In this document: positions 3,634 through 34,405 of the stretch, in pieces | How positions within the stretch are numbered: position 1 is the stretch's first letter | Layout: the number at the start of each line of letters is the position of its first letter | DNA from: Deinococcales bacterium | Lineage (GTDB): Bacteria > Deinococcota > Deinococci > Deinococcales > JAAFIG01 | Length of the DNA: 64,000 nt | Assembly (NCBI GenBank): GCA_031414595.1 | Contig: JANNVX010000032.1 | Span: 6,947 to 70,946, forward strand | Reading direction: 5' to 3' | Notes under the pieces: generated by a model | Seen by the model: only the letters and a program-made list of their open reading frames with translations | What the model was told of the DNA's origin: nothing | The model's database searches: none | Program-made: the position numbers and the translations under genes

Positions 3634-3667
3634 CTCAAAGCCCATAGCCCAAAGCTCATAGCCCAAC
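3634..3667. repeat. left copy of a ~34-bp inverted repeat pair (CTCAAAGCCCATAGCNCAAAGCNCATAGC)
   Basis: About 90% identical to the reverse complement of 13617-13651. Abuts the stop codons of two convergent genes. Confidence 0.5.
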
Positions 3668-4098
3668 TATGGAATCACATATATCCCATCGCTGCGAGCC
3701 TCGAGCTTAAAGGCTGGTAATGGCTTGGCGGCTGGACCTTGAATCACTGCACCTGTTTCTAAGTTAAACAAACTGCCGTGGCAAGGGCAACCAAGTTGAT
3801 TATTGACGGGTGCGCTGACTCCACAGCCAACATGGGTGCAAACCGTAGAACGAGCAATTAAATGGATTTCGCCTTGGCTGATGCCAGCCGCTTGTGGTTT
3901 GGCAACCCTTGCAATAATGGCTGGATTGGTCTCGAGATTGAGGTTCTTAAAACTACCAACACTGGGAAATTCGCTTAAAGTCGCTACTTTTATGCCCGCT
4001 TGGGCTAGACTCGCTCCGGGGTTTTCTCGGATTGGCATACAGCCAGTCGCACCAATTGCTCCAATTGTAACTAGGGCTTCTCGTCTGGTGATTTTCAT
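3667..4098 (-). CDS. Rieske [2Fe-2S] protein with Tat signal
   Basis: Twin-arginine N-terminus MKITRREAL. Rieske boxes CTHVGC and CPCHGS. Confidence 0.75.
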   Translation of the reverse strand: MKITRREALVTIGAIGATGCMPIRENPGASLAQAGIKVATLSEFPSVGSFKNLNLETNPAIIARVAKPQAAGISQGEIHLIARSTVCTHVGCGVSAPVNNQLGCPCHGSLFNLETGAVIQGPAAKPLPAFKLEARSDGIYVIP

Positions 4099-4315: not shown

Positions 4316-5767
4316 GTGGGTATGAGTATGCTCGAATCTGTGCGTGATCGTTTGTTTCCTGATACTCCAGACGGGTCGGCAAAGCTGTGGCTTACGTCGT
4401 CTGTGGTCTGGGGGGTTATTGGCATGACCTTTGGTGTGTTCATGGCAATTTTGTTTGTCTTTCCAGAATTCACCAAAGGTGTGCCGTGGTTGTCGTTTAG
4501 TCGGATTCGTCCGTCACACGTCAACACCGTGGTGATGTCTTGGGTTTCGATGGCAAGCATTGGCTCGATGTTTTATATGTTGCCGCGCTTATTAAAGACT
4601 CCACTGGTTTCTGAGCGTCTGGGTACGGCGGTCGGTTGGTCTTGGAACGCCTTTGCCATCTGTATTCCGCTAACACTCTTAAATGGACTATCGGAAGGGC
4701 GCGAGTGGGCGGAGCTTGTTTGGTGGATGGATTGGTGGATGTTGATTAACCTTGGCTTGGTCGGTTATTTAACCTTTGCGACTGTGGCAAGACGCACCGA
4801 ACCACAATTGTACGTCTCGGTTTGGTATTGGATGGGTTCGATGGTTGGCATGACCTTGGTCTGGATTGTTGGCAACCGAACTTTTGTACCACTAGACGGA
4901 CTTAACGATGCGATTGCCAATTGGTTCTATGCCCACGATGTATTAGGATTATGGATTACCACCATGGGCATTGGAATTATTTACTACCTGTTGCCAAAAC
5001 TAACGGCTGGCAAGAATGGCGAACCGGGCAACCCTGTCTTTAGCCATAAAATGTCCTTGATTGGGTTCTGGGGAAATTTTGCCTTCTACACGGGTATTGG
5101 GGCGCATCACATTATTCAGTCGCCAGTTCCAGAATGGCTTAAAGCCTTTGCGATTGCCTCGAGTGTTTTAATGAGCATTCCAGTCTACTCGGCAAGTGCC
5201 AATTTTTTCTTAAGCACCCAAGGGCGTTGGGAGAACTTGGCTTGGAATTTACCGCTTCGATTTGTAACCTTTGGCTGGATTATGTACGCGCTCTCGAGTT
5301 TTCAGGGCAGTTTACAAGCAGTGCGTTCAATCAACTGGTATCAGCACTTCACGGGAATTGTCAGCGCTCACGCCCATTTAGCCATGCTTGGTGGCTTTAG
5401 CGTGGTGTTGTTTGCTAGTATTTATTACTGTATTCCGCGTCTTTACAAAGTCGAGTGGTACTCTAAAAAACTCGTGGTGGTGCATTTTTGGACGTTTACG
5501 GTTTCGTTTGTAATGTTCTTTTTGGTCTGGACAACCATGGGCTTTGTACAAGCCACCAGTTGGGTCATGGGGATTAACGTCCAACAAACCGTGCCATTTT
5601 TACAACCGTTTACCTTCACCCGCATGATTGCCGCGTTAGCGATGATTTTTTCGGTTTATATTTTTGCCTATAACGTGCTGCAAACTGTGCGGAGCGCTAA
5701 ACGTCAAGAGGCTTTTTCCGGAGCCAGAATTCCTTCAGCAGTTGCGCCTGCTGCGGCGGATGATTAG
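4316..5767 (+). CDS. ccoN: cbb3-type haem-copper oxidase subunit I (CcoN-like)
   Basis: 483 aa polytopic protein. His-ligand motifs GAHH and HAH are present. Followed by CcoO. SD GGAGGAAGG lies upstream. Confidence 0.75.
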   Translation: MGMSMLESVRDRLFPDTPDGSAKLWLTSSVVWGVIGMTFGVFMAILFVFPEFTKGVPWLSFSRIRPSHVNTVVMSWVSMASIGSMFYMLPRLLKTPLVSERLGTAVGWSWNAFAICIPLTLLNGLSEGREWAELVWWMDWWMLINLGLVGYLTFATVARRTEPQLYVSVWYWMGSMVGMTLVWIVGNRTFVPLDGLNDAIANWFYAHDVLGLWITTMGIGIIYYLLPKLTAGKNGEPGNPVFSHKMSLIGFWGNFAFYTGIGAHHIIQSPVPEWLKAFAIASSVLMSIPVYSASANFFLSTQGRWENLAWNLPLRFVTFGWIMYALSSFQGSLQAVRSINWYQHFTGIVSAHAHLAMLGGFSVVLFASIYYCIPRLYKVEWYSKKLVVVHFWTFTVSFVMFFLVWTTMGFVQATSWVMGINVQQTVPFLQPFTFTRMIAALAMIFSVYIFAYNVLQTVRSAKRQEAFSGARIPSAVAPAAADD

Positions 5768-5775
5768 GAGTTTTT

Positions 5776-6699
5776 ATGCTGAATCCTAAGAATGCAATTA
5801 TCGGGCTGATGTTTATGCTCCTTGTGACTGGTGTGACCAGTTTGGTGGTCGTCGTACCCGCCGCAACTTTTAATCCTGAGCCATCAGTTGGTTTACGCAA
5901 TTACACCGAAGCCGAGTTGCGTGGGCGCGAAGTTTTTAAGCGCGAGAACTGCTATGTTTGCCATAGTCAATTTGTGCGTTTTCAAGACGAAGGTGTTGGT
6001 CCAACTTCGCAAGCTGGCGACTTTGCCTACGACAATTCAAACTTGCTCGGCACGCTGCGAAATGGTCCGGATTTGACCTATGAAGGCGGCTTATACCCGG
6101 ACGAATGGCACATTGGGCATCTAAAAGCGCCGCGTTCGTACTTACCGGGCAGCTATATGCCAAGTTACAGTTACTTAGACTCTAAAGACATCAAAGACCT
6201 TGTGGCATTTATCCAAAGCCTTGGGACACGCAATACACGAGCTTGGGACACCAAAGATGTCAATGTCCCAGAAAAGTACCGCAATCTCGAGTCTCCACTT
6301 GGTCAGACGGCAGCAAATATCGGGGCTGGGCGTGGTATTTACAACCAGAATTGCTCGGCTTGTCACGGCTTTGAGGGTCGGGCAGATGTGCCTTTGGCAA
6401 AAATGTTCTATCCAAAACCAGCCGCCAATTTCCATTTGCCTCGTTATAAAGATTTTACCGACGGACACTGGTTTAATAAAGTCGCAAGGGGCGTACCGGG
6501 AACTCGGATGCCGCGCTGGGACCAAATTCTCAATTCTGAGCAAATGTGGTATGTCGTCACCTACCTAAAGTCTTTAGCAGCAGACCAAGACCTTGTGCCG
6601 AAAGCGGGACGGGAAAAGTATTACGACAAGTCAGTTTTGCAACCCGGAACAATCAAGAAAAAGTACGAAGGCGCACCTAAAGCGGGCGGTGGTCACTAA
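5776..6699 (+). CDS. ccoO: CcoO-like monohaem subunit fused to a second c-type cytochrome domain
   Basis: N-terminal TM helix. First CYVCHSQ...GPDL...MPSY region matches the FixO/CcoO pattern. A second CSACH haem motif sits in the C-terminal half. Confidence 0.7.
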   Translation: MLNPKNAIIGLMFMLLVTGVTSLVVVVPAATFNPEPSVGLRNYTEAELRGREVFKRENCYVCHSQFVRFQDEGVGPTSQAGDFAYDNSNLLGTLRNGPDLTYEGGLYPDEWHIGHLKAPRSYLPGSYMPSYSYLDSKDIKDLVAFIQSLGTRNTRAWDTKDVNVPEKYRNLESPLGQTAANIGAGRGIYNQNCSACHGFEGRADVPLAKMFYPKPAANFHLPRYKDFTDGHWFNKVARGVPGTRMPRWDQILNSEQMWYVVTYLKSLAADQDLVPKAGREKYYDKSVLQPGTIKKKYEGAPKAGGGH

Positions 6700-6992
6700 T
6701 GAAACATTTGGCTCGAGCCTTGGTTCTTGCTTGTTTCTCGAGTTTGGCATTTGCCGACCATGTGCCGGGCGTTGGCTTAAATTACAGTGGAACTTGGGTG
6801 GTGTTGATTGCTGTTGGTGTGATTTTTTCGCTTTTGATTTTGTCTTTGTTGTGGGCAGTTTTAGATGGGCAATTTCAGAATTCTGAACGGGTTAAATTTG
6901 CAGTGGCAGAGGTTAATGAAACCGATTTTATTCCGAGTATTGAGCGTCCGCAAGGCAATCTGGGTATTCAACGTCCGCAAGGCAAGAGGTGA
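6699..6992 (+). CDS. small membrane protein with C-terminal ERPQGN repeat
   Basis: TAATG-coupled to ccoO. One TM helix. The DNA carries a tandem copy of CGTCCGCAAGGCAA. Confidence 0.4.
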   Translation: MKHLARALVLACFSSLAFADHVPGVGLNYSGTWVVLIAVGVIFSLLILSLLWAVLDGQFQNSERVKFAVAEVNETDFIPSIERPQGNLGIQRPQGKR

Positions 6993-6995
6993 GTT

Positions 6996-7154
6996 ATGGC
7001 AGAGCAGAATAAAGACAACCACGACGACAACCATACCCACGAAATTGCTGGTATTCAAGTTGGCGAGAAAAACGTGCCAACCTCAGTGATTGCTGTGATT
7101 ATTTTCATTGTCTTTTTCGCCTTAATTTCTTGGATTGCACCACAGGGGTTTTGA
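6996..7154 (+). CDS. 52-aa single-TM protein, FixP_N/CcoQ-like
   Basis: Not in the ORF track (<60 aa). HTHEIAGIQ...TM helix resembles the CcoP N-terminal segment. Its stop overlaps the start of the next gene (TGATG). Confidence 0.35.
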   Translation: MAEQNKDNHDDNHTHEIAGIQVGEKNVPTSVIAVIIFIVFFALISWIAPQGF

Positions 7155-8158
7155 TGAAAAAAATCATAACACTCTTTCTAATCTCGAGTTTAGCCGCTTG
7201 TAGCGTACCGAGTAACGCCAATAATCCAGCCAAAGAAGCCGCCAAAAAAGGGGTTTTGTACATTCGTGAAGGCGAAAAACCACTTGAATTAAAAGTCGAA
7301 GAAGGCGCATATGACTGGAAGTACCCGAAGTACCCCGAAGATTACAAAGTTGATTTGAGTAACCGCGACCAAAACAACCAAACTTATATGTCTGGGCGGG
7401 AAATCACTTACCGAGCCAAACCCGATGGTCAACATAAAATGGACACTGCCTTGGCAGAATTTGGTTCATATGCAGGTCCTTGGCTCGAGGGCGAAGAAGC
7501 CTTGCTCTTACCAGTAGCCAACCCCAATGTGGTACTGGGTGACGCTTTAATCAAGAGTTTGGGGGCAGAAATCAAGCCCGAAATGCTGCCGACACTCGAA
7601 GAAACCCCTTTTCAGGCATACTTAAAATTGCGTGAACTTGGTAAGGACACGGAAGGTCGTCACCGCACTGTAACCATCGAATTAACTGGTGTGACTAACC
7701 CTTCGAGTGGCAAGCCCGAAAATGCCGAGTACGATGTTCAACTTGATAAAGAGGCTTTATGGAGCATTGCTTACGCTTTGTACCGCAAAATTCAACCTGA
7801 CTTTAAGACCAGAATTCCAACTCGAGAAGACCCGAAAAAACTACTCGATGGCGCATTGATTTACGGCAATTGCAACATGTGTCACGGCTCGGATGGTTGG
7901 GGCTTGGGCAAGAGTGGTCATAAGTTGCAACCACACCCAGCCAATTTTCATGAGCCAAGGCGTTTGTTTAATCGTTCTGATGCCAAACTGCGTGAAGTCT
8001 TGAAGCACGGAATTTACGGAAGTGCCATGCCACCGTGGGGTGACATACTCTCTGAAAATGAAATTAACCATGTGGTGGCATATATTCGTTCTTTTTCGTA
8101 CAGTCTCGAGCCACCAGTCTTGAATGTCAAACCACGTTTTAAGGGAGGTCAGCCATGA
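7154..8158 (+). CDS. lipoprotein with C-terminal monohaem cytochrome c domain (CcoP c-domain-like)
   Basis: Lipobox LAAC. CNMCH haem motif and a C-terminal cyt-c-like tail. Start trimmed to MKKIITL. Confidence 0.6.
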   Translation: MKKIITLFLISSLAACSVPSNANNPAKEAAKKGVLYIREGEKPLELKVEEGAYDWKYPKYPEDYKVDLSNRDQNNQTYMSGREITYRAKPDGQHKMDTALAEFGSYAGPWLEGEEALLLPVANPNVVLGDALIKSLGAEIKPEMLPTLEETPFQAYLKLRELGKDTEGRHRTVTIELTGVTNPSSGKPENAEYDVQLDKEALWSIAYALYRKIQPDFKTRIPTREDPKKLLDGALIYGNCNMCHGSDGWGLGKSGHKLQPHPANFHEPRRLFNRSDAKLREVLKHGIYGSAMPPWGDILSENEINHVVAYIRSFSYSLEPPVLNVKPRFKGGQP

Positions 8159-8183
8159 ACCTGACACTCAAGGGAGGTCAACC

Positions 8184-8837
8184 ATGATTGACCGCAGAAG
8201 TATCGTGAAAGGCATCACTATTTTGCCGCTTTTAGCTGTGGCTGGTGGGATTGGAACTGCCCTTTTATCGTTTCTTAAACCGACTTGGAAACCACTGGCT
8301 TTGCCTGTCACCGAAAAACCCTTAAATGAGGACAAAGTTGTTGGCACACTCGAGGAATTTGCTAAGGATTACGACTTTAAGGCGTTTGTATTCACGCAAA
8401 TTACCGTCGAATACACGGCTCGAGGGCGGGCGGCTACCGATGTGCTTGGTTATGCGGTTCGCATCCCCAATAACAGTTTAGCCGCCGCCGATGTGGGTGT
8501 TGGACCCAGTGGCTTACGCCGAGGCTACGGCGAAACTGATTACAATGGTCAAAAGTACAGCATTGTGGTGGTCTCAAGAATTTGCGCTCATTTGGGTTGT
8601 ATTTTTGAGTACCATCAACCTGCCGAAGTTTGTTCTGGCTTTAATTACTGTGGCGGCTCTACTCCAATGTTTTCTTGTCCGTGCCATTTATCGGTCTATG
8701 ACCCAGCCCAACAGCAAGATGTGGCTGGGGTTGGTAAATTACCCGGCAAGGTTGTCTCTGGTCCTGCGCCCCGCACTCCATTTCCTTTTGATTTTGAAAT
8801 TAAAGGCAATGAAATCATCGTCAAAAGCTACGGTTAA
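8184..8837 (+). CDS. Rieske iron-sulfur protein of a bc/b6f-type complex
   Basis: SD AGGGAGG then ATG. N-terminal TM helix. Rieske boxes CAHLGC and CPCHLS. Confidence 0.75.
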   Translation: MIDRRSIVKGITILPLLAVAGGIGTALLSFLKPTWKPLALPVTEKPLNEDKVVGTLEEFAKDYDFKAFVFTQITVEYTARGRAATDVLGYAVRIPNNSLAAADVGVGPSGLRRGYGETDYNGQKYSIVVVSRICAHLGCIFEYHQPAEVCSGFNYCGGSTPMFSCPCHLSVYDPAQQQDVAGVGKLPGKVVSGPAPRTPFPFDFEIKGNEIIVKSYG

Positions 8838-8849
8838 GGAGGAATACTT

Positions 8850-10157
8850 ATGGCAGCCCCCGCAGTTCCCGCAAAAAAAGCTGTTCCAAATGTTGGGCAA
8901 AAAATCGCCCAATGGTGGACTAAAAGTGCGCGTAATTTAGATTTATTTGACGAAAACCAAACCGATAAAGTTTTAACCGACCCGTGGTACATGCTTGGTG
9001 GGATGGCGTTGTTGTTTTGGTACATCACCATTGTGACAGGCACAGTTCTGATGTTTTTTTATGTGCCGGACACCTATCAGGCATGGCGCAGTGTGCGTGG
9101 AATGTTTGAAGGTGAACAGGGTTTTATTGTTGCCCTGATTCGCAATATGCACAAATACGGCGCAGATGCACTGATTATTGCCCTAACAATGCGAATTTAC
9201 CGCATGTACTTTAGGGGTGAATTTAAGAATTACAATCAGCTTTCCTATATGCTGACAATCATTGGCTTACTTTTAGCCATGTTTAGTGGTTTAACGGGTT
9301 ACTTGCTGATTTGGAATCAACGCGCACTGTGGGCAACCAAGGTTTTTGCGACCTTCCCAACTTTTGTGGATGATTTTCACAATATCCCGACGATCAAAGT
9401 CTTCCTAGCTCCGCTTGCTTATGTTCTCGAGCATACCCTCTCGAGTCTTAAAATTGGGGCTTTGACGGCTAATTTTATGCTGGCTGGTCAAAGTATCGGT
9501 CCAGCTACTTTGACCCGTTTTTACAGCGCCCATTTTATGCTTTCGATGCTGGCAATTTTGGCAATTGAAGCCTACTTTGCCCGTAAGGGACGCGGTGGTA
9601 AAATTGGTGAAGCGGCAGCCGGTGGTGGGGCTGGGCGCTTTAAGCGGATTAATTTACCGTGGTTTGCAGTGGTTTTTTGTTTTGTAATTCTGGTGGTAGT
9701 TTCGATTTGGGTTCCAGTGGATACGGGCAGCCCCGCGAACTACAGCGTTACGCCAAATCCGATTTTGTCCGACTGGTACTTTTTGGGGTTGTACCAAATG
9801 ATGAAGTGGTGGCAACCCGCCGTGGCAACCTTACAGACCGTTTTGCTTCCCTTGGTGGCTTTTATTGTCGTCTTTTTAGATTATAGCCCCGAACGCAATC
9901 CTTGGAAACGCCCGTTCTGGACAATGGTTGGAATTTACGGATTGGTCTCATGGTTGGCGTTTAGCATCCTGATTATTCTAAACATTGCCGACATTAAACG
10001 CGACCCACCTTATGTTTACTTGGTCAGCATGATTATGCTTGGGGCTGGCGCAATTTGGCACTGGGTCTTTATGGCAGGCGAACGCAAAAAACGCTTAAAA
10101 CTCGAGGCAGAAAAAGCCGCTAAAGCTGCTCTAGCCGCCCCACAAGCGGCTGATTAA
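8850..10157 (+). CDS. cytochrome b (long form) lacking both haem bH ligands
   Basis: Cyt b/b6 helix B and D motifs are present. First His is retained (NMHKYG, SAHFML). Residues at the +14 His positions are Arg and Tyr. Confidence 0.7.
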   Translation: MAAPAVPAKKAVPNVGQKIAQWWTKSARNLDLFDENQTDKVLTDPWYMLGGMALLFWYITIVTGTVLMFFYVPDTYQAWRSVRGMFEGEQGFIVALIRNMHKYGADALIIALTMRIYRMYFRGEFKNYNQLSYMLTIIGLLLAMFSGLTGYLLIWNQRALWATKVFATFPTFVDDFHNIPTIKVFLAPLAYVLEHTLSSLKIGALTANFMLAGQSIGPATLTRFYSAHFMLSMLAILAIEAYFARKGRGGKIGEAAAGGGAGRFKRINLPWFAVVFCFVILVVVSIWVPVDTGSPANYSVTPNPILSDWYFLGLYQMMKWWQPAVATLQTVLLPLVAFIVVFLDYSPERNPWKRPFWTMVGIYGLVSWLAFSILIILNIADIKRDPPYVYLVSMIMLGAGAIWHWVFMAGERKKRLKLEAEKAAKAALAAPQAAD

Positions 10158-10174
10158 GCGAAAGGAAAGCAATC

Positions 10175-10477
10175 ATGAAAGGAAGCACTTGGCTATTTAC
10201 CCTCGCCTCATTTGTTGGTGGCATCCTTGTCTTTTCAAGTGGCTACAACCAAGTGTTGCGCTACCTCGAGCAGCCGACTTGGACGGGCTTAGCGATGATT
10301 GCTTTTTGGTTGACTTTGCTGCTGTTTTTTGTGGTTACACTGGGGTTTATTATGTATGCCGTAGACCGCAAAGCTGGCAATGTACGGGTCAAAATCGCGT
10401 TATTTGAACGTTTACTGGGTTATTCTAAAGAGGCTGTTTTGCCAGAATCTCGAGAAAAAAATAAGGAGAATTCATGA
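10175..10477 (+). CDS. small membrane protein (2 TM)
   Basis: Hydrophobic 100-aa ORF with an SD. Lies within the coupled operon. Confidence 0.4.
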   Translation: MKGSTWLFTLASFVGGILVFSSGYNQVLRYLEQPTWTGLAMIAFWLTLLLFFVVTLGFIMYAVDRKAGNVRVKIALFERLLGYSKEAVLPESREKNKENS

Positions 10478-10845
10478 AGACAATCATCGCCATACTGCTG
10501 GTTTTAGGGGCGCTCGGACTTGCGCCTTTGACCATTGGGGCGTTCGCTCACGCCAATCCAGATTTTGGAACAGTTGATAAAACCTTATCTTCCGAAAATC
10601 CATACATTGTTCGTGAGGATGGAGCGCCAAAAATTCCAGAGCTTGCGGTGAGCTTGGTTAAAATTATTCGAGATACCGAAGGGGCGATTTCTGGGGCGTT
10701 GCTGCCAAACCTAAAATCCTTCCCATTTGAACGTGGCTTTGCGTATATGGGCTTAACTGTACTGCTGACTGCGATTGCTTCGGCACTGCTTGCCGATACG
10801 CGCAGTCAAACCCTCGTTAAACCTGGCAAGAGGAGGCTGGCATAA
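10474..10845 (+). CDS. exported protein (signal peptide)
   Basis: ATGA overlap with the upstream gene. Cleavable-looking N-terminus. Confidence 0.4.
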   Translation: MKTIIAILLVLGALGLAPLTIGAFAHANPDFGTVDKTLSSENPYIVREDGAPKIPELAVSLVKIIRDTEGAISGALLPNLKSFPFERGFAYMGLTVLLTAIASALLADTRSQTLVKPGKRRLA

Positions 10846-12032
10846 TGGCAGGTTACAGCGCCGACCAAGCCCCAACTTCTCGGGACAAAGGTTTTGATGC
10901 AGGTTTAGATGGTATCCATAAAGGTGTTGTTGCCGTAGACAAAGCCATCAATAAAGTCATCCCCGAAGAGTTCAATCCGTTTTATTACTTGGGCGGCATC
11001 ACCAATGTACTTTGGGTGCTGCTTGTGCCAACCGGCATTTTCTTGTGGTTTTACTATAAACCCACCACCTCAGAAGCCTTCTCGAGTGTTGATTATTTAA
11101 CCGTACAGGTCTTTTTTGGTGGTGTGATTCGCGGTATTCATCGTTATGCTGGCAATGGCATGATTTTATTGGCGGTGCTGCACATGTTGCGTAATTTCTT
11201 CACCGACCGTTACCGAGGCTTTAGAGATATCCCTTGGGTTTCTGGAGTTATCCTCTTGTTTCTAACTGGTTTCATTGGCTTGACTGGTTATTTGTTGGTT
11301 TGGGATCAACGCGCCTTGGTCATTACCGAAGCCTTGGTACAGATTTTACGCAGTTTTGACTTGGTGGTTGCTGGATTTGGCACTTGGTTAGCCAGAGGAC
11401 TCATCGGTGGTGACGAACCGAATAATTTAACCTTGGCTCGGATGCTGTTTTTGCATGTTGGACCTGCAGTGATGGTGTTCTTTTTCTTGTGGGTGCATTA
11501 TTTGCGTTTGCACCGCCCCAAAATCTGGCCTCCGGCTTTTGTAACGCTACTGACGATTGGCGCAGTTTTATTGGTGGCTGGTTTAGCACCACTCGAGAAA
11601 ACCTTGCCCGCCACACAACCGATTGTTGAAGGACAAGCTGCCATTGTCTATGACATTTTCTATTTGCTGCCTGTATTAGCGCTCTCGAGCATCAGCGCCC
11701 CTTGGATTTTGGCGATTCTACTGCTGCTTTTTGCGGTGATGTTTATTCTGCCTTGGATTCCAGCCAAAAAACACCGTTATGTCAATGTCGCAACCGTCAC
11801 CCCAGAAAACTGTACCGGTTGTCAACTCTGTGCTATTGACTGCCCGTTTGACGCAATCGTGATGGTTCCTGGAGCAAATCCAAATCCGCGTTATACCGAG
11901 TTAGCCGTGGTCAATGATGACAAATGTGCTGAATGTGGTATTTGCGTTGGTGCTTGCCCATTCCATGCAATCAATCTCCCGCTCATGGATGAATACACTG
12001 TGCGCGATAAGGTGGTGGCGTTACTTAAATGA
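10845..12032 (+). CDS. dihaem cytochrome b domain fused to 2x[4Fe-4S] ferredoxin domain
   Basis: Helix B has H..(13)..H (GIHRY...VLHML). Helix D has H..(13)..H (FLHVG...WVHYL). C-terminal CTGCQLCAIDCP and CAECGICVGACP motifs. Confidence 0.75.
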   Translation: MAGYSADQAPTSRDKGFDAGLDGIHKGVVAVDKAINKVIPEEFNPFYYLGGITNVLWVLLVPTGIFLWFYYKPTTSEAFSSVDYLTVQVFFGGVIRGIHRYAGNGMILLAVLHMLRNFFTDRYRGFRDIPWVSGVILLFLTGFIGLTGYLLVWDQRALVITEALVQILRSFDLVVAGFGTWLARGLIGGDEPNNLTLARMLFLHVGPAVMVFFFLWVHYLRLHRPKIWPPAFVTLLTIGAVLLVAGLAPLEKTLPATQPIVEGQAAIVYDIFYLLPVLALSSISAPWILAILLLLFAVMFILPWIPAKKHRYVNVATVTPENCTGCQLCAIDCPFDAIVMVPGANPNPRYTELAVVNDDKCAECGICVGACPFHAINLPLMDEYTVRDKVVALLK

Positions 12033-12517
12033 CACAAGCAACTGAACATATCCAACCCCAAGTTTTAGCCTTGAGTGGCAAACCCAAAATTTTTGGCTTT
12101 GTCTGCGAATGGAGCTTAGGACGCACCGATTACATCCATGAAGATGGCACGGTCAAAGGCATGGAGCATATCAAAACCCTTAAAATTCCTTGCTCGGGCT
12201 TTGTGAAAACCGAATGGGTCACGGTGGCATTTGAAAATGGCGCTCAAGGTGTGTTTGTGCTGGGTTGCCCACTCGGAGATTGCCATTTTAACGAAGGTAA
12301 CTTCATTATTAACGGCAGACTCGAGCAGCACACAGGCAGAATGGTCAACCGTAAAATCATTGACGAAGCTGGGCGCGTTGCCGAGCTTTACCTTGGTGTG
12401 ACTGGCAACAACGATTTCTTTACTCAACTCGAAGACTTCACCAAGTACATCAGCGACATGCCAGCCTTGGTAGTCGCTGCCAAAAAACCTCGGGCTGCGG
12501 CAGCCAAAAAGGAGTAA
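12029..12517 (+). CDS. MvhD/FlpD-like hydrogenase iron-sulfur subunit family protein
   Basis: Cys pattern CEWS...PCSGF...GCPLGDCHF, typical of the methyl-viologen-reducing hydrogenase delta subunit family. ATGA-coupled to the upstream gene. Confidence 0.6.
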   Translation: MTQATEHIQPQVLALSGKPKIFGFVCEWSLGRTDYIHEDGTVKGMEHIKTLKIPCSGFVKTEWVTVAFENGAQGVFVLGCPLGDCHFNEGNFIINGRLEQHTGRMVNRKIIDEAGRVAELYLGVTGNNDFFTQLEDFTKYISDMPALVVAAKKPRAAAAKKE

Positions 12518-12521
12518 TCAG

Positions 12522-12725
12522 ATGGAAGAAACTGCTGTAAATTCTAAAATTCTCGAGATAAGCGGCGAATCTACCTTGGCTGTGCGACCTGAACTCGAGC
12601 AAGTTGGAACTACCGAAAAGGACTCTCGGGGGGTGGGCTATCTGATGAATTGGGTCAGTTTAATTTTACTTTTTGTGCTTTCAATGATTGCCATTGCTTG
12701 GTTTGGACCTTTTAGCGAAGTATAG
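12522..12725 (+). CDS. small C-terminally anchored membrane protein
   Basis: SD AAGGAG. One TM helix at the C-terminus. Confidence 0.35.
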   Translation: MEETAVNSKILEISGESTLAVRPELEQVGTTEKDSRGVGYLMNWVSLILLFVLSMIAIAWFGPFSEV

Positions 12726-12773
12726 CCGAGCCTCATCTTAAGTCTGGTTCTTAATCATCCAAAAAGCGTTAAA

Positions 12774-12806
12774 CTAGAGGCAACCATCAGTGGTTGCCTC
12801 TAGTTT
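12774..12806 (+). terminator. perfect 12-bp stem hairpin abutting the kinase start codon
   Basis: CTAGAGGCAACC-ATCAGT-GGTTGCCTCTAG followed by TTT, then ATG. Confidence 0.4.
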
Positions 12807-13616
12807 ATGGCAAGAATCCCTTTAACAACACCTGAGCCAGCCGAACCTTCCAATGCGATGGATAAGTTGCGTATGAGCCAAATAGAAATTATCTCGATCA
12901 CCCCATTTATTCGGCTCGAGAAGGGCAATTGGCAAGGCAAGCGTGTGCTGGTCAAACGCTTAAAAACATCCATGATGAACAACCCTGATGTGCTTGAACG
13001 CTTCGAGCGCGAAGCCGATATTCTCGAGCGGCTTGACCACCCGAATATCCCAGCCTTGATTCACCGCGAATCTGGGGTACTGATGCGCCAATACGTTGAA
13101 GGCAACACGCTTTATCATTACCTCAACACCGCCACCATAGACACCGCCTCAACTTTGCATATTGCAAGGGGTTTATTGTCGGCATTGGTGCATTCGCACG
13201 TCCGAGAAATCCTACATTTGGATGTCAAACCCGCCAATGTGCTACTCAGCGCTGACCGCCGCGTCCATCTGATTGATTTTGGATGTGCCAAAGACCTGAC
13301 TTTGGGCAGTATTACCCACCATGAAGCCCGTCTTGGCACACCGCATTACATGGCACCCGAGCAATTCAAAGGCATCCGCGATGAACAACGCTCCGACATT
13401 TACAGCGTCGGGGCAGTGATGTACGAATGCCTGATGGGACAACCACCACAACGTGACCCATTTGCATGGTTATCTGGACGTGGTGCATTACCCAAGCAAA
13501 TGCCTAAGAATAATCAGTTGGCTGATATCATCTGGAAAGCCATTCAACGCAACCCAGACCACCGATACGACGAAGCCCTTGATATGCTCGAGGCGTTAGA
13601 AGCGATTGAAGTTTAG
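12807..13616 (+). CDS. Ser/Thr protein kinase (Hanks-type)
   Basis: HLDVKPANVLL catalytic loop, DFG, and GTPHYMAPE activation segment. Confidence 0.75.
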   Translation: MARIPLTTPEPAEPSNAMDKLRMSQIEIISITPFIRLEKGNWQGKRVLVKRLKTSMMNNPDVLERFEREADILERLDHPNIPALIHRESGVLMRQYVEGNTLYHYLNTATIDTASTLHIARGLLSALVHSHVREILHLDVKPANVLLSADRRVHLIDFGCAKDLTLGSITHHEARLGTPHYMAPEQFKGIRDEQRSDIYSVGAVMYECLMGQPPQRDPFAWLSGRGALPKQMPKNNQLADIIWKAIQRNPDHRYDEALDMLEALEAIEV

Positions 13617-21816: not shown

Positions 21817-24549
21817 ATGACCCCAGAAGAACGCGCCAGATTCCGCATAGACCAACAACTGCTGGCATCTGGTTGGGTTCTACAAAACAAAGATGAGTTT
21901 AATCGCACGGCTGCTTTTGGGGTGGCGGTGCGTGAATTTGCCTTGTTAAACGGCGAAGCTGATTATTTGCTGTTTGTGGATGGTAAAGCCATTGGGGTTC
22001 TCGAGGCAAAACCAGTTGGCACGACCCTTTCTGGGGTGGCAGAACAAACCAAGAAATACCTCGAAGGAGTACCGCCGCACCTCGCCAAACACAGTGCCAA
22101 TTTGCCTTTTGGCTTTGAAAGTACAGGACAAGAAACGTTTTTAATAGATACCCGAGACCCGAATGCCCGTTCAAGGCGAATTTTTCAAATCCACCGCCCA
22201 GAAACCCTGCTCGAGTGGGTGCGGCAGCCAACGACCTTACGAACCCGTTTAAGCCAGTTACCAAGCGTAGACAAAAACGGTTTGCGCTTATGCCAAATAG
22301 AGGCAGTTGGCGGACTCGAGCAGAGTTTAAGCCAGAATAAACCCCGCGCTTTAATTCAGATGGCAACCGGCAGCGGCAAAACCTTTACTGCCGTGACCAG
22401 CAGTTACCGCTTGATAAAACAGGCTGGCGCAAAACGAATTTTGTTCTTGGTAGACCGCAACAATTTAGCCAAACAAACCCTCGCCGAATTCCAGCAATAC
22501 ACCACCCCAGACGATGGGCGCAAATTTAGTGAACTCTACAATGTCCAGATGCTACAAGGTAAACGCCTAGACCCTGTAGCCAAAGTAGTGATTGGCACAA
22601 TCCAGCGCCTTTTTAGTATGCTTAAAGGCGAAGAGATAGACGATGAACTCGATAACAAAAGCCTGCATGAACTGGGGATTAAAGACCAAAAACCCAAAGA
22701 AGTGATGTATAACCCCGAGATTCCGATAGATTCTTTTGATTTTATTATTATTGACGAATGCCACCGCAGCATTTATAACCTCTGGCGTGGGGTTCTCGAG
22801 TATTTTGATGGGTTTTTGATTGGTTTAACCGCCACCCCAAGTAAACAAACGATTGGCTTTTTTAACCAGAACCTTGTGACCGAATACGCCTACAGCCAAG
22901 CCGTCAAAGATAATGTCAATGTGGATTACGATGTCTACCGCATTAAAACCCAAATTGGCGAATTTGGGGCAACCATCGAACAAGGCGAATACATTGATAA
23001 ACGCGACCGCCAAACCCGCCGTAAACGCTGGGAGGCACTGGACAATGACCTTGAATACACAGGCAAAGAACTTGACCGCAGCGTTGTAGCGGTCAGCCAA
23101 ATCCGCACCGTGATTCGCACCTACAAAGAAAAACTGCTCGAGATTTTCCCAGAGCGCAGCCATACCCCAAAAACCCTGATATTTGCTAAAACCGATAGCC
23201 ATGCCGAAGATATTGTTGAAATTGTGCGTGAAGAATTTGGCAAAGGCAATGATTTTTGTAAAAAAATAACCTACCGCACAACCGAAGACCCCGAAACGTT
23301 GATCAAAGAATTTCGCAACAATTATTATCCACGAATTGCCGTGACCGTAGACATGATTAGCACTGGCACAGACATTAAACCACTCGAGGTGCTGCTGTTT
23401 ATGCGCGATGTTGCCAGCGCTGTCTACTTTGAACAAATGAAGGGACGCGCCACCCGCACCATCCATCCAGACGAACTCAAAGCCGTCACCCCAGATGCCA
23501 AACACAAAACCCATTTTGTGCTGGTGGACGCAGTGGGCGTAACCGAAACAATCAAAACCGATTCTAAACCACTCGAGCGCTTACCGAGTATTCCCTTTGC
23601 CAAAATCCTGCAAAAAATTGCCATGGGCGACACCAGCTTAGAAACCATCTCGAGTTTAGCCAGCCGTTTAACCCGACTTGATAAAAAACTAAGCGAAACC
23701 AGCCGCGATGCACTGGAAGTCCACGCCAAAAAAGACCTCAAAACCGTTGTTGCAAACCTCATTCGCGCCACCGACCCAGACAGCATCGAAGCCCACGCCA
23801 TAACCCAAACGGGCAACCCCAACCCAAGCGATTTGCAATACGACCAAGCCCAATCTGACTTAGCCGAAAATGCCGCCCAGCCATTTAATAACCCAGAATT
23901 CAGGCGTTTACTCGAGGACATCCAACGCGATAGCGAACAAACCATAGACACCGTCACCCAAGACCAAGTGCTGTATGTCGGCTACGATTTTGACAAAGCC
24001 AGACGGATGGTACAAACATGGCAAGACTTTATCGAACAACACAAAAACGAACTGACGGCACTGCAAATTATTTACAACCAACCCAAGCAACAACAAAAAC
24101 TGACCTTTGCCGCAATCCAACAACTTGCCAGCGCCATCGAGCAGCCACCGTACTATTTAACCCCAGAAAATGTTTGGAAAGCCTACGAAAACCTCGAGCA
24201 AACCCGAGTGAAAAGCAGCCACAACCCGCAGCGCCTCCTAACCGACCTTGTAGCCTTGGTGCGCTTTACAACTGGGCAAGACACGATGCTAACACCATTT
24301 ATGGACACCGTACAACACCGTTTTCAGACATGGCTAAGTCTGCAACAATCGAGCGGCACAGCTTTTAGTACAGAACAACTCGAGTGGCTAGGCATGATCC
24401 GAGACCACATTGCCAGCAGTGCTGCGATTGAGATTCAAGACCTCGAACTCAGCCCGTTTCACCAACGCGGTGGGGCATACAAAGCCGTACAATTATTTAA
24501 GAACATCAGACCACTGCTCGAGGAACTCAACACGACCCTGAGTGCATAA
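21817..24549 (+). CDS. hsdR: type I restriction enzyme R subunit
   Basis: Walker A TGSGKTFT. DEAH-box DECHRS. Helicase C motifs. 910 aa. Confidence 0.85.
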   Translation: MTPEERARFRIDQQLLASGWVLQNKDEFNRTAAFGVAVREFALLNGEADYLLFVDGKAIGVLEAKPVGTTLSGVAEQTKKYLEGVPPHLAKHSANLPFGFESTGQETFLIDTRDPNARSRRIFQIHRPETLLEWVRQPTTLRTRLSQLPSVDKNGLRLCQIEAVGGLEQSLSQNKPRALIQMATGSGKTFTAVTSSYRLIKQAGAKRILFLVDRNNLAKQTLAEFQQYTTPDDGRKFSELYNVQMLQGKRLDPVAKVVIGTIQRLFSMLKGEEIDDELDNKSLHELGIKDQKPKEVMYNPEIPIDSFDFIIIDECHRSIYNLWRGVLEYFDGFLIGLTATPSKQTIGFFNQNLVTEYAYSQAVKDNVNVDYDVYRIKTQIGEFGATIEQGEYIDKRDRQTRRKRWEALDNDLEYTGKELDRSVVAVSQIRTVIRTYKEKLLEIFPERSHTPKTLIFAKTDSHAEDIVEIVREEFGKGNDFCKKITYRTTEDPETLIKEFRNNYYPRIAVTVDMISTGTDIKPLEVLLFMRDVASAVYFEQMKGRATRTIHPDELKAVTPDAKHKTHFVLVDAVGVTETIKTDSKPLERLPSIPFAKILQKIAMGDTSLETISSLASRLTRLDKKLSETSRDALEVHAKKDLKTVVANLIRATDPDSIEAHAITQTGNPNPSDLQYDQAQSDLAENAAQPFNNPEFRRLLEDIQRDSEQTIDTVTQDQVLYVGYDFDKARRMVQTWQDFIEQHKNELTALQIIYNQPKQQQKLTFAAIQQLASAIEQPPYYLTPENVWKAYENLEQTRVKSSHNPQRLLTDLVALVRFTTGQDTMLTPFMDTVQHRFQTWLSLQQSSGTAFSTEQLEWLGMIRDHIASSAAIEIQDLELSPFHQRGGAYKAVQLFKNIRPLLEELNTTLSA

Positions 24550-24564
24550 GGGTAGAATACCGTC

Positions 24565-24852
24565 ATGGATACCCAAGCCATACAGCAGATTCTAGGGCAA
24601 CACCAAGCCGAACTTCGGGCGTTTGGTGTGCGCGAACTGCTTTTGTTTGGCAGCACTGCCCGAGGCGAAGCCACGCCGCAAAGCGACCTAGATTTTTTGG
24701 TCGAACTCGAGCGATACACACTAACCGATTTTATGGGCTTAAAATTTGCACTCGAAGAATGGTTTGGTCAAAAAATAGATTTAGGGACTCGAGCCAGCCT
24801 AAAACCGATACTGAGCGCCGAAGTCGAAAAGGACTTACGCCGTGTCGCGTAA
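24565..24852 (+). CDS. mntA: MNT-type nucleotidyltransferase antitoxin (second copy)
   Basis: FGSTARGEATPQSDLDFLV motif. Confidence 0.7.
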   Translation: MDTQAIQQILGQHQAELRAFGVRELLLFGSTARGEATPQSDLDFLVELERYTLTDFMGLKFALEEWFGQKIDLGTRASLKPILSAEVEKDLRRVA

Positions 24853-25192
24853 ACTAGAATTGTATTTAATCGATATTCTCGAGGCAATAGCGCGATTAAA
24901 GTTATTTACCAAAGGCTTTGACCAAGAAGCCTACCTGAATTCGTTGCTGGTACGAGATGCGAGCTTTCGCAATTTTATGGTTATTGGCGAGGCAGTTAAG
25001 CAAATTTCCGATGAATCTCGAGCTAAACACCCAACAGTACCTTGGAAATCTATTGCGGGTTTACGAGATTTATTAGCCCATGAGTATTTTAGAACCGATG
25101 ATCGAATTTTATGGAATGTAATTGAAAAAGAACTAGACCCACTCAAAGAAGCAGTCTTGGCACTTCTAGCAGCAAGCAAGGCTGACCGATGA
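24842..25192 (+). CDS. hepT: HepT/DUF86 toxin (second copy)
   Basis: GTG start overlapping the MNT gene. RDLLAHEY motif. Confidence 0.7.
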   Translation: MSRKLELYLIDILEAIARLKLFTKGFDQEAYLNSLLVRDASFRNFMVIGEAVKQISDESRAKHPTVPWKSIAGLRDLLAHEYFRTDDRILWNVIEKELDPLKEAVLALLAASKADR

Positions 25193-26727
25193 CCCTAACC
25201 AAAACGCAACCCGATTTTTTTGCAGTTCTGACAGGCGCACAAGCCACAGCTGCCCCCGCGTTGCAGGAGTTACCAATGAACTGGGAATGGGCAAAACTCG
25301 AGGATGTTTATAAAATTGTTGGTGGTGGAACTCCTGCAACTGCAAATCAAGAGTTTTGGAATGGAGATATTCCGTGGATCACCAGTGCTGATATTACTGA
25401 TTCTGGCGAAATAAATCCCAGAAAGTTCATTACAGAGATTGGTGTAAAAAATTCACCAATTAACATTATTCCCGAGGGCGCAATTGTCATTGCTACTCGA
25501 GTGAGTTTGGGTAAGATTGCAATTGCACCAACAAAACTTACTTTCAGTCAAGATTGCCAAGGATTGTTGGCAGAAATTCAAGTTCTCGAGCCAGCTTTTG
25601 CATTGCATTTTTTAGCAACAGAAGCAAAAAAGTTTCAGTACATTAGTCGTGGTACTACGATTTCGGGAATTACAAAAAAACAGCTTTCAGAACTGAATGT
25701 GCGTGTCCCGCCGCTTCTCGAGCAGAAACGAATTGTGGCTAAACTCGAGGAATTACTATCCGAACTCGAGTTTGGGGTCAAAACCCTAAAAATTGCTTTG
25801 GCAAAAGTCAAAAAATACCGTCAGAGTGTGCTTAAAGCTGCCGTTCAAGGCGATTTATCCAAGGCGTGGCGTGAAGCCCAAGGCGGTTCGCTCGAGCCAG
25901 CCAGTGTGTTGTTAAAAAAAGTCTTACTCGAGCGCCAACAAAAATGGATTCTCGAGCAGCAAGCCAAGGGCAGGAAAAATGCGAAGTACACCGAGCCACA
26001 AGCCCCAGACTCGAGCGGTTTGGCGGAATTACCAGAAGGTTGGGTCTGGACAACAGCAGGATATATTTGTGACTGTATTGTTCCAAATCGTGATAAGCCT
26101 CAATCTTTTACAGGCGACATACCTTGGATTACGATTCCAGATTTTGATTCAAGTAACCTACATATTTCCAAGGCTAAATCTGGTTTAGGTTTAACTCGAG
26201 AAGAAGTTGAGAAATATCGAGCAAGATTGATTCCAGTAAACAGCGTCATTATGACTTGTGTGGGTCGTTTTGGAATAGCAGCAACCACTAAACAAGAATG
26301 CGTAATCAATCAGCAACTTCACGCTTTTCTATTTGTTCCTGAGTTGATTCCTGAGTATTTGACAATTGTTTTAATAACTCAAAAATCCTACATGGATAAG
26401 AAGGCAAACGCGACAACAATTGCTTACTTAAATAAGGAAAGTTGTAACAGCGTTCCTCTCCCTCTTCCCCCGCTCGAGGAACAAGCCTTTATTGTCTCCC
26501 AAGTCGAAGCGAAACTATCTGCCACCGACCATCTCGAGAACAGCATCAAAGCCAATTTGCTACGGGCGGAACGCTTGCGGGCAAGTACGCTCAATATGGC
26601 GTTTCGTGGTGAGCTTGTCGCCCAAGACGCAACGGATGAACCGGCGGCGGTACTGCTCGAGCGGATACGCGGTTTGCGGGCAGAGGCGGGACGTAAGAAG
26701 TTGCCTAAAAAATCATCTAGCCCTTAA
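25189..26727 (+). CDS. hsdS: type I R-M specificity subunit
   Basis: Two AT-rich target-recognition domains separated by conserved helical spacers (LPPLLEQKRI / LPLPPLEEQ). Confidence 0.8.
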   Translation: MTLTKTQPDFFAVLTGAQATAAPALQELPMNWEWAKLEDVYKIVGGGTPATANQEFWNGDIPWITSADITDSGEINPRKFITEIGVKNSPINIIPEGAIVIATRVSLGKIAIAPTKLTFSQDCQGLLAEIQVLEPAFALHFLATEAKKFQYISRGTTISGITKKQLSELNVRVPPLLEQKRIVAKLEELLSELEFGVKTLKIALAKVKKYRQSVLKAAVQGDLSKAWREAQGGSLEPASVLLKKVLLERQQKWILEQQAKGRKNAKYTEPQAPDSSGLAELPEGWVWTTAGYICDCIVPNRDKPQSFTGDIPWITIPDFDSSNLHISKAKSGLGLTREEVEKYRARLIPVNSVIMTCVGRFGIAATTKQECVINQQLHAFLFVPELIPEYLTIVLITQKSYMDKKANATTIAYLNKESCNSVPLPLPPLEEQAFIVSQVEAKLSATDHLENSIKANLLRAERLRASTLNMAFRGELVAQDATDEPAAVLLERIRGLRAEAGRKKLPKKSSSP

Positions 26728-26743
26728 TCAGCTATAATTTCGT

Positions 26744-26983
26744 ATGCTTCAGACTTTGTTTACAGTGGGTGACGGCACGGCGGTAATTATTCTAGCCGAT
26801 TTACTCAAGCGGTACGGCTTAAAAGCTGGGGATTTGGTCAATTTGCTCAGTACCGAAGCAGGAATTGCAATTGTACCAGAAACGGGTTTAGACCCAAGTT
26901 TTGAAAATGCCTTACGCACCATTTCGAGAGAACGCCATGAATTGTTTCAACGCCTTACTGACTTTGATACACAAAAACCATGA
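26744..26983 (+). CDS. small AbrB/SpoVT-like protein
   Basis: 79 aa. A swapped-hairpin-like VGDGTAVIIL...GLKAGDLV segment. Embedded between hsdS and hsdM. Confidence 0.35.
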   Translation: MLQTLFTVGDGTAVIILADLLKRYGLKAGDLVNLLSTEAGIAIVPETGLDPSFENALRTISRERHELFQRLTDFDTQKP

Positions 26984-27026
26984 GGTTCGTTGCATTTTGG
27001 CTCGAGTCTCGGGTTAGCATGGGCGC

Positions 27027-34165: not shown

Positions 34166-34239
34166 AGTGATTTATGGGAGTCGAACCCATTACCGTCAGT
34201 TTACAAGACTGATGCTCTAACCAGTTGAGCTAAAACCTT
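34166..34239 (-). tRNA. tRNA-Thr(UGU)-like; acceptor stem does not pair as read
   Basis: D-arm GCTCAACTGGTTAGAGC. Anticodon loop CUUGUAA. T-arm ATGGGTTCGACTCCCAT. 5' AAGGTTT against 3' AAATCAC gives only 3 bp. Confidence 0.4.
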
Positions 34240-34241
34240 GG

Positions 34242-34327
34242 TAAAAGATGCAGGATTTGAACCTGCTTGCCCTTGCGGGCGCTCGTTTTTCAGACGAGTG
34301 CGTTTATCCAGTATCCGCCAATCTTTT
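34242..34327 (-). tRNA. type II (long variable arm, Leu-like body) tRNA with apparent GAA anticodon
   Basis: Acceptor AAAAGAT/ATCTTTT. D-arm TGGCGGA...CGC. Anticodon arm CTCGT-CUGAAAA-ACGAG. Variable hairpin GCCCGCAAGGGC. T-arm GCAGGTTCAAATCCTGC. Followed by ACCA. Confidence 0.5.
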
Positions 34328-34330
34328 TTT

Positions 34331-34405
34331 GGTGAAAGGAATCGAACCTCTGACCTCTCGAGTGGTTTACCCATCCCAAGCGCTCTGCCCATCTAAGCTA
34401 CACCG
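34331..34405 (-). tRNA. tRNA-like element; anticodon arm unresolved
   Basis: Canonical T-arm GGTTCGATTCC and D-arm GCTT-AGATGGGCA-GAGC. Only a 4-bp acceptor (GGTG/CACC). The 3' end abuts the next tRNA. Confidence 0.3.

Follow-up and report, generated by a model that had tools for sequence, protein, structure and literature searches.

In microaerobic life, the cbb3-type enzymes serve as high-affinity oxidases. To our knowledge, CcoN and CcoO are their only universal subunits, and electron entry without CcoP is poorly documented; variants with monohaem, triheme or fused Cco subunits are known. The canonical electron route runs from haem cp2 to cp1, co and b, and in the bc1-cbb3 supercomplex of Rhodobacter capsulatus the transmembrane (TM) helix of CcoP lies at the interface with TM helix 7 of cytochrome b (PMC7876108). 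A 'complex III-IV operon' is described for Melainabacteria in passages of two reports (PMC6349859; bioRxiv 10.1101/531145), both of which cite Soo et al. (2017, Science). Here, we analyzed an operon in a 64,000-nucleotide stretch of a Deinococcales bacterium (the window; assembly GCA_031414595.1, contig JANNVX010000032.1, positions 6,947 to 70,946 of the forward strand). The reading that we prefer, with slightly better than even confidence, is that it encodes a C-family oxidase together with a Rieske/cytochrome b quinol oxidase ('complex III-IV'), and that CcoP is represented in it by two genes, one for a micro-protein and one for a lipoprotein. The operon comprises 13 genes on one strand at minimal spacing (approximately 4316-12725), with the following features:

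4316..5767, + strand: CcoN, 483 aa, predicted catalytic subunit of a C-family (cbb3-type) haem-copper oxidase
5776..6699, + strand: CcoO with a C-terminal class-I cytochrome c domain, 307 aa, dihaem
6699..6992, + strand: CcoS/FixS-like single-TM protein, 97 aa, occupying the ccoQ slot of ccoNOQP
6996..7154, + strand: FixP_N-like single-TM micro-protein, 52 aa, candidate separate CcoP N-terminal anchor
7154..8158, + strand: lipoprotein cytochrome c, 334 aa, with lipobox LAAC, a haem-less N-terminal part of about 200 aa and a C-terminal monohaem class-I domain
8184..8837, + strand: Rieske iron-sulfur protein, 217 aa (start codon ATG, 8184), with the twin-arginine motif RRSIVK and CAHLGC...CPCHLS
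8850..10157, + strand: cytochrome b (b6 plus subunit-IV-like), 435 aa; Cytochrome_B 1.5e-20, Cytochrom_B_C 7e-5
10175..10845, + strand: two small membrane proteins, 100 and 123 aa, with the same sizes and positions in loci L082, L085 and L088
10845..12032, + strand: second cytochrome b (N-terminal half) with a 2x[4Fe-4S] ferredoxin domain, 395 aa; Cytochrome_B 1.9e-28, Fer4 families
12029..12725, + strand: FlpD/MvhD-like protein of 162 aa (FlpD 2.6e-20), then a 67-aa membrane protein at the operon end

An earlier account of this DNA, made from the sequence without database searches (the original prediction), had let the cluster end at 8158 and had thereby missed the Rieske/cytochrome b module into which the operon runs on. 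The five open reading frames (ORFs) that it described are all present, and gene predictions made independently for further assemblies of this organism gave identical sizes (483, 307, 97, 52 and 334 aa, plus the 217-aa Rieske protein). All five front ORFs are under purifying selection, and stop and start codons overlap among the front genes (TAATG, TGATG). Comparison loci were fetched with an alignment of the CcoO-cytochrome c fusion (CcoO-c), and all operon proteins were run against them by tblastn. The full gene series was found in the same order in 13 loci from metagenome-assembled genomes (MAGs) of Melainabacteria, Vampirovibrionia and Obscuribacterales at approximately 35-45% identity, and in closer relatives at 69-91% identity. 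The host belongs to an uncultured lineage, named 'Deinococcota bacterium' or 'Deinococcales bacterium' by the submitters, and the Deinococcota label is common to the operon proteins and a housekeeping dihydrolipoyl dehydrogenase (same 90% clusters).

By its sequence, CcoN is the oxygen reductase subunit of a C-family (cbb3-type) oxidase, with predicted activity. It matched COX1 (4.1e-68) and the ccoN model TIGR00780 (1.7e-72), but the latter at 245 bits, below the model cut-off of 583; among solved structures, it matched 9g6b_A (4e-61) and 3mk7_A (5e-58). In the alignment to these two chains, all six histidine ligands (those of haem b and b3 and three of CuB) and the helix-VII tyrosine are kept, within the motifs RPSHVN (haem b His), YAHD (CuB His), FYTGIGAHH (Tyr-x6-HH) and AHAH. 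The neighboring CcoO bears the marks of the C-family as well, namely an N-terminal TM helix, CxxCH with a Met ligand, and a gene that adjoins ccoN. Identity as a nitric-oxide reductase was considered and rejected, as NorB matched at only 1e-6 compared to 1e-61 for CcoN, CcoO is present and the tyrosine is kept.

The 307-aa protein is, judging from its domain matches, a complete CcoO continued by a class-I cytochrome c domain. FixO matched residues 6-139 (7.8e-35), and the CcoO chains 6xkw_o and 3mk7_B matched residues 4-149 (1e-26 to 4e-28). Cytochrom_C covered residues 184-267, and Cytochrom_C and Cytochrome_CBB3 together spanned residues 181-267. The motifs CYVCH (59-63), GPDL (97-100), MPSY (128-131) and CSACH (193-197) are invariant in 16 of 16 relatives, and so are both CxxCH sites and both Met ligands, including C59, C62, H63 and M128. 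The extra c-type domain on CcoO was thus correctly seen in the original prediction. Its novelty did not survive: both halves matched the known dihaem family NF011054 (PRK14486, 'putative bifunctional cbb3 subunit II/cytochrome c'; two stretches, 3.3e-47), an outcome that the prediction itself had named as refuting, and the fusion recurs in other phyla. The whole-protein score of 161.4 bits against a cut-off of 447 places the protein outside the equivalog, with a like architecture that is already modelled in NCBIfam. CcoO-c fusions were also found in loci from Nitrospirota (Thermodesulfovibrionales), Symbiobacteriaceae and Vampirovibrionia. An AlphaFold2 model of CcoO-c reached a predicted local distance difference test score of 58, too poor for a fold search.

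As a side observation, CcoO of the window lacks, at residues ~132-156, the insertion of about 60 residues that proteobacterial CcoO carries between MPSYSYL and the last helix (..DLVAFIQSLGT). This insertion is retained in the CcoO-c of Thermodesulfovibrionales (L014), and the compact form is common to Vampirovibrionia and Bacillaceae.

The following 97-aa protein has a signal-peptide-like N-terminus (..LAFA|DHVPGVGL) and one TM helix. Against Pfam FixS/CcoS (PF03597) it scored 15.7 bits (E 0.013) and did not reach the gathering threshold of 23.1 bits, whereas the syntenic proteins from Vampirovibrionia scored 32.1 and 23.1 bits, passing or equaling it. These counterparts have 55-80 aa and the pattern MCPNC...TM...LWAFKNGEFEDxE..KFxMLDD. 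Profile-profile comparison with hhalign tied the two families together (Prob 94.4%, E 8.9e-8; 0 of 100 column shuffles came near the score) over the TM helix and the motif LWAxLDGQF...E..K. Because the Vampirovibrionia counterparts reach the FixS threshold and hhalign links both families, we assign the 97-aa protein, on sequence grounds, as a divergent CcoS/FixS-like protein at the ccoQ position. Compared with L081, the nearest relative (CcoO 91% identical), the ratio of nonsynonymous to synonymous substitution rates (dN/dS) was 0.10 for this gene and 0.11 for the gene of the 52-aa protein, and therefore both small ORFs are real protein-coding genes. The original prediction had described a membrane protein with a tandem RPQG repeat. 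The protein and the two copies of the repeat are real, but the repeat is absent from relatives and was rejected as a meaningful feature, being a trivial local duplication; the CcoS/FixS-like identity had been missed. The periplasmic N-termini of these CcoS-like proteins carry conserved potential metal ligands, MCP(N/S)C in most Vampirovibrionia (L002-L013) and DH(V/I)P in the Deinococcota clade, whereas canonical CcoS begins directly at the TM helix. It is speculation that they could be copper-handling sites for CuB insertion.

The 52-aa protein consists of HEIAGIQVGEKNVP and a TM helix. It is conserved and syntenic in 20 loci. At its position, the Vampirovibrionia loci have an ORF of 50-91 aa that aligns gap-free, and hhalign linked the window clade (16 sequences) to the micro-ORFs of Obscuribacterales (98.3%, E 2.3e-14) and Vampirovibrionales (95.5%, E 1.6e-8). 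A profile search of 1.84 billion cluster representatives returned 12 relatives, all of them standalone proteins of 49-93 aa that matched at their own C-terminal end; a fused form was not found in this search. For comparison with the CcoP anchor, a FixP_N alignment was built from 42 proteobacterial CcoP N-termini in the fetched loci. The micro-protein clade aligned to it over the full length (HEIAGf.VGe..vP and TM helix paired with GHeWDGi.ElNnPlP and TM helix), with an hhalign score of 21-22 and a P value of 2-3e-4. This score was reached by 0 of 300 full or block column shuffles, whose maximum was 18.6.

Two further kinds of proteins bridge the micro-protein and CcoP. In Thermodesulfovibrionales (L014), a FixP_N-like protein of 69 aa stands by itself at this position after CcoO-c (24.2 bits in Pfam; 94% and E 1.3e-7 in hhalign against the FixP_N alignment), and in Symbiobacteriaceae (L075) CcoO-c is followed by a Q/S-like protein and a 57-aa protein ending in ..TGF. 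Moreover, a hidden Markov model (HMM) of all micro-proteins was used to search the complete set of ORFs from the fetched loci (10,380). Besides the 20 syntenic micro-ORFs, it matched one more protein (E 3.5e-7; loci L049 and L025), the 131-aa product of a ccoN-ccoO-X operon of Mesobacillus thioparans with Pfam matches to FixP_N (24.6 bits) and Cytochrome_CBB3 (51.7 bits). In BLASTP against the operon proteins of the window, its N-terminal part matched the micro-protein and its haem domain matched residues 209-322 of the lipoprotein, colinear with the two genes. From these matches, the 52-aa protein is probably a FixP_N-type CcoP anchor encoded as a separate gene. The resemblance of the micro-ORF to the CcoP N-terminal domain, as originally proposed, was thus recovered (P 2.9e-4, and the Mesobacillus bridge), its conservation in relatives was found on checking (homology to the Vampirovibrionia micro-ORFs at 95-98% in hhalign), and the apparently split CcoP is supported by anchor-like and haem parts that form separate genes and are bridged by the 131-aa short CcoP.

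Two observations concern the records of split or short CcoP genes. The locus L025, labelled Chryseobacterium sp. ISL-80, is nearly identical to L049 of Mesobacillus thioparans and has a Bacillaceae-type ccoN-ccoO-short-ccoP operon, so that the record is probably mislabelled or contaminated. On a long-read contig of a Sphingomonadales MAG (L047, 8853-9796), an 87-aa FixP_N ORF and an overlapping dihaem ORF of 236 aa together make up a canonical CcoP; the interruption is probably a frameshift error, and single split-CcoP calls can be artefacts. The split in the window clade is of another kind: more than 20 assemblies show it, and the haem part carries a lipoprotein signal of its own.

The lipoprotein cytochrome starts at the ATG at 7154 (334 aa) and not at the TTG at 7130 (ORF 7130-8158); a 100% identical 334-aa protein is already recorded. 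Its lipobox, MKKIITLFLISSLAAC, fits the pattern [LVI][ASTVI][GAS]C, with Cys16 invariant and Leu13 nearly invariant in 45 relatives. By this signal criterion the protein is a bacterial lipoprotein, with predicted acylation. Lipobox LAAC and the C-terminal monohaem domain were rightly described before. Exactly one CxxCH is present in each of the 45 relatives, which are members of the clade. The protein matched Cytochrome_CBB3 (1.5e-10) and the CcoP chain 3mk7_C (4.4e-8). The CcoP model TIGR00782 gave 25.6 bits for the lipoprotein and 34.1 bits for CcoO-c at a cut-off of 180, and no ORF at the locus combines a FixP_N anchor and two haem c domains in one chain. The orthologues in Vampirovibrionia are lipoproteins with two CxxCH sites, and the haem domain of the window protein is orthologous to their haem domain 2 (hhalign score 165). 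After these, the domain is closest to the C-terminal domain of CcoO (118-122), followed by CcoP domain 2 (105) and CcoP domain 1 (87). In a MAFFT alignment, the N-terminal half lined up with the first haem domain of the dihaem orthologues; a degenerate cytochrome c domain in this half is retained as no more than a tentative possibility (hhalign P 0.026, Prob 1.9%).

The wider operon gives the lipoprotein its likely place. In all 13 operon proteins there are three c-haem sites (CxxCH) and none of them is in the Rieske or cytochrome b proteins, so that the site of the lipoprotein is the only one of the operon outside CcoO. The Rieske protein gave only weak Pfam and NCBIfam Rieske matches and is syntenic in all relatives, and the 435-aa cytochrome b, with a CxxCH count of zero, is approximately 40% identical to its Vampirovibrionia orthologues. 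Rieske/cytochrome b complexes require a c-type acceptor. With the haem sites distributed as described, the lipoprotein is therefore the natural candidate for this role. Its position right before the Rieske and cytochrome b genes points the same way, and so does its absence from L014 and L075, two CcoO-c loci without a neighboring bc module.

How these proteins would work together may be outlined as follows. The oxidase would consist of CcoN and dihaem CcoO, with the CcoS/FixS-like protein encoded at the ccoQ site. CcoP would be present as two adjacent, translationally coupled genes, for the 52-aa anchor, which appears to retain from FixP_N both the TM helix and the cytoplasmic motif HExxGI...P, and for a monohaem lipoprotein predicted to be exported by the Sec pathway and processed at its lipobox. 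The Rieske/cytochrome b module would oxidize quinol and the Rieske cluster would reduce the lipid-anchored cytochrome c, an assignment made because the module contains no c-type cytochrome of its own. The electron would then pass to the C-terminal haem of CcoO and further through the CcoO haem and haem b to the haem b3-CuB site, without a soluble carrier. This path would parallel the canonical one from cp2 through cp1 and co to b. The lipoprotein thus probably wires the Rieske centre to the oxidase. Since the TM helix of CcoP lies at the cytochrome b interface in the R. capsulatus supercomplex, the retained anchor helix has a plausible structural role. Gene identities, conservation, synteny, the number of haem sites and the sequence links to CcoP are shown here, whereas physical binding of the small proteins to the oxidase, electron transfer along this route and supercomplex formation are inferred.

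Several observations weigh against our reading. Pfam FixP_N (PF14715, threshold 24.9 bits) did not match the 52-aa protein even at E values up to 1, and the NCBIfam scan of this protein gave no FixP_N match. Direct Pfam and NCBIfam scans of the Vampirovibrionia homologues likewise gave none. The hhalign probability of the link between the micro-protein and FixP_N was just 40-48%, and both FixP_N matches of the bridge proteins (24.2 and 24.6 bits) lie slightly under the Pfam gathering score. A pooled alignment of 15 micro-proteins scored 15.3 against FixP_N, a value reached by 12 of 60 block shuffles; this alignment was dropped, and clade-specific alignments were used instead. Finally, L014 and L075, which have CcoO-c and no adjacent Rieske or cytochrome b gene, lack a lipoprotein cytochrome after the micro-protein, and the lipoprotein may accordingly be a part of the bc module and not a descendant of CcoP.

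This last point leads to an explanation that we consider unlikely but worth weighing, in which the lipoprotein is a c-type subunit of the bc complex (the equivalent of c1 or QcrC) or serves it as a tethered carrier comparable to cytochrome cy or lipoprotein c551, the C-terminal domain of CcoO has replaced the haem domains of CcoP, and the 52-aa protein is a leftover anchor. The lipoprotein indeed occurs only where Rieske and cytochrome b genes follow, whereas L014 and L075 have CcoO-c and the micro-protein without it. The bc module offers no other c-haem, the gene order c-Rieske-b is like that of actinobacterial qcrCAB, and the QcrC (NCBIfam) matches of the dihaem orthologues are approximately as strong as their ccoP matches. 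However, the short CcoP of Mesobacillus is colinear with the micro-protein followed by the haem domain of the lipoprotein, translational coupling (TGATG) joins the two genes in the order of the CcoP domains, and the lipoprotein domain scored 105 against CcoP domain 2 but 72 against haem domain 1 of its own Vampirovibrionia orthologues. Moreover, this explanation departs from the two-gene CcoP mainly in descent and not in function. The original prediction had gone in another direction and proposed that the two haems of CcoP were redistributed. In its strict form, an ancestral dihaem CcoP was split, the proximal haem moved to CcoO and the distal one to the lipoprotein, with three c-haems conserved, which we regard as improbable. 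The window clade has exactly three c-haem sites, the CcoO C-terminal domain and the haem domain of the lipoprotein are mutually the closest non-orthologous relatives (118-122), and the lipoprotein domain leans to CcoP domain 2 (105 versus 87), as the CcoO domain does marginally to domain 1 (89 versus 85). These leanings are within noise, however, and a domain move over two intervening genes needs a rearrangement of which no trace was seen. The Vampirovibrionia orthologues, with CcoO-c and a dihaem lipoprotein, carry four c-haems and not three, and the CcoO-c fusions of Nitrospirota and Symbiobacteriaceae occur without the lipoprotein. Taken together, the four-haem versions and the lipoprotein-less fusions argue that CcoO more likely gained its extra haem domain earlier and independently than by relocation of a piece of CcoP.

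The remaining alternative concerns the small proteins, which would not be oxidase subunits at all: the 97-aa protein would be a mere assembly factor (CcoS), and the 52-aa protein would be lineage-specific, with a likeness to FixP_N that arises from TM composition. CcoS is an assembly factor and not a subunit in Rhodobacter, the 52-aa protein has no Pfam match, and short TM profiles do yield spurious hhalign scores, as high as 28.7 when the pooled alignment was block-shuffled. We nevertheless give this alternative little credence, since the match extends beyond the helix to the non-TM motif H-E-x-x-G-I-x6-P in register, none of the 300 shuffles reached the score of the 16-sequence clade alignment, the bridge protein was matched at 3.5e-7, and the position of the micro-protein is fixed across four phyla. 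On balance, we keep to a CcoP encoded by the micro-protein and lipoprotein genes. A bolder version joins all parts and is put forward tentatively, as rather doubtful in its entirety: the operon would encode an obligate, carrier-free quinol-to-oxygen supercomplex in which CcoP is split, the 52-aa TM remnant forms the CcoN-side interface helix facing cytochrome b, and the lipid-tethered haem domain doubles as the missing cytochrome c1. The module would have moved horizontally between Vampirovibrionia and uncultured Deinococcota, and the standalone FixP_N micro-subunit would be a general, unannotated component of all C-family oxidases of the CcoO-c type across at least four phyla.

With regard to the rest of the operon, family scans of the two small membrane proteins (100 and 123 aa) gave no match. 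The cytochrome b-Fer4 protein is syntenic in Vampirovibrionia at 34-40% identity, as is the FlpD-like gene, and this pair (10845-12517) is kept with the operon in Vampirovibrionia and all close relatives. Its presence suggests a link of the quinone pool to a cytoplasmic Fe-S or ferredoxin-type partner. The operon is followed at 12770-12807 by a perfect inverted repeat of 17 bp (TAAACTAGAGGCAACCA-CTGA-TGGTTGCCTCTAGTTTA) and then by a Ser/Thr kinase gene. This hairpin, likely a bidirectional terminator, extends into the earliest potential start codon of the kinase ORF (12807). A promoter scan was uninformative, with 11 sites found and 11.8 expected. Just upstream of ccoN, a divergent gene (3667-4098, - strand) encodes a 143-aa Rieske-domain protein whose sequence contains a twin-arginine signal (MKITRREAL) and what may be a lipobox (ATGC). 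The nearest relative, L081, has this protein as well, but in L082, L084 and L088 its place is taken by a protein of about 400 aa without annotation. Further away, the window contains a type I restriction-modification system (21817-28496) with an HsdR-like protein of 910 aa, an HsdS-like protein of 512 aa and an HsdM/MAD2-like protein of 489 aa, in housekeeping surroundings (malate synthase, YloV/FakA-like, FdhF/YdeP-like, adenine deaminase and lipoamide dehydrogenase), as well as three tandem tRNA genes (34169-34404, - strand; Rfam tRNA, 54, 35 and 30 bits).

The operon type is already known from Melainabacteria, which are non-photosynthetic cyanobacteria, and the locus in the window is a variant of it and not a new kind of system. 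The standalone FixP_N-like micro-subunit, the lipoprotein form of a CcoP-like cytochrome and the monohaem version in a Deinococcota host appear to be undescribed in the literature searched; this search found no paper on GCA_013298185 or on a standalone FixP_N protein. What emerges is a recurrent cbb3 subtype with dihaem CcoO and a FixP_N-like micro-subunit of about 50 aa, which is called 'hypothetical protein' or not called at all in databases, and the III-IV operon form of this subtype adds a lipid-anchored cytochrome. If confirmed, the locus would show how complex III is connected in nature to a C-family oxidase with minimal wiring; better annotation of micro-proteins in respiratory operons would follow, and a Deinococcota branch would be added to the debate on the spread of aerobic respiration to lineages sister to Cyanobacteria.

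Compared with canonical ccoNOQP (Pseudomonas stutzeri, 3MK7 and 5DJQ; Rhodobacter capsulatus, 6XKW), the locus agrees in the ligands of CcoN, in the TM anchor, CxxCH and Met ligand of CcoO, in a small single-TM gene between O and P, in a probable FixP_N-type anchor followed by cytochrome c domain(s), and in the number of three c-haems. It differs in the second haem domain of CcoO, the missing CcoO insertion of about 60 residues and the CcoS-like protein at the CcoQ position. Furthermore, CcoP appears as two genes with a lipid-anchored, monohaem haem part behind a haem-less domain of about 200 aa, and both CcoN and CcoO score below the NCBIfam equivalog cut-offs. NF011054 (PRK14486) shares the two-domain architecture of CcoO-c, of which the protein of the window is a distant sister and not an equivalog member. 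The short monohaem CcoPs of Bacillaceae (Mesobacillus thioparans L049, 131 aa) and Bacteriovoracaceae (L063, 194 aa) likewise combine a FixP_N-type anchor with one Cytochrome_CBB3 domain, but as a single TM-anchored polypeptide without a lipoprotein signal or haem-less domain. Actinobacterial QcrCAB-CtaCDEF (7RH5, 7Q21), cytochrome cy and Bacillus lipoprotein c551 resemble the locus in its proposed quinol-to-oxygen wiring free of soluble cytochrome, a putative membrane-attached c-type bridge between complexes III and IV and the order c-Rieske-b. The Melainabacteria/Vampirovibrionia III-IV operon is colinear with it throughout CcoN, CcoO-c, the CcoS-like protein, the micro-protein, the lipoprotein, Rieske, cytochrome b, the two small proteins, cytochrome b-Fer4 and FlpD, and the locus described here differs from that operon in its Deinococcota host, in one lipoprotein haem instead of two, and in its CcoS-like protein, where a signal-peptide-like N-terminus that carries DH(V/I)P takes the place of MCPNC.

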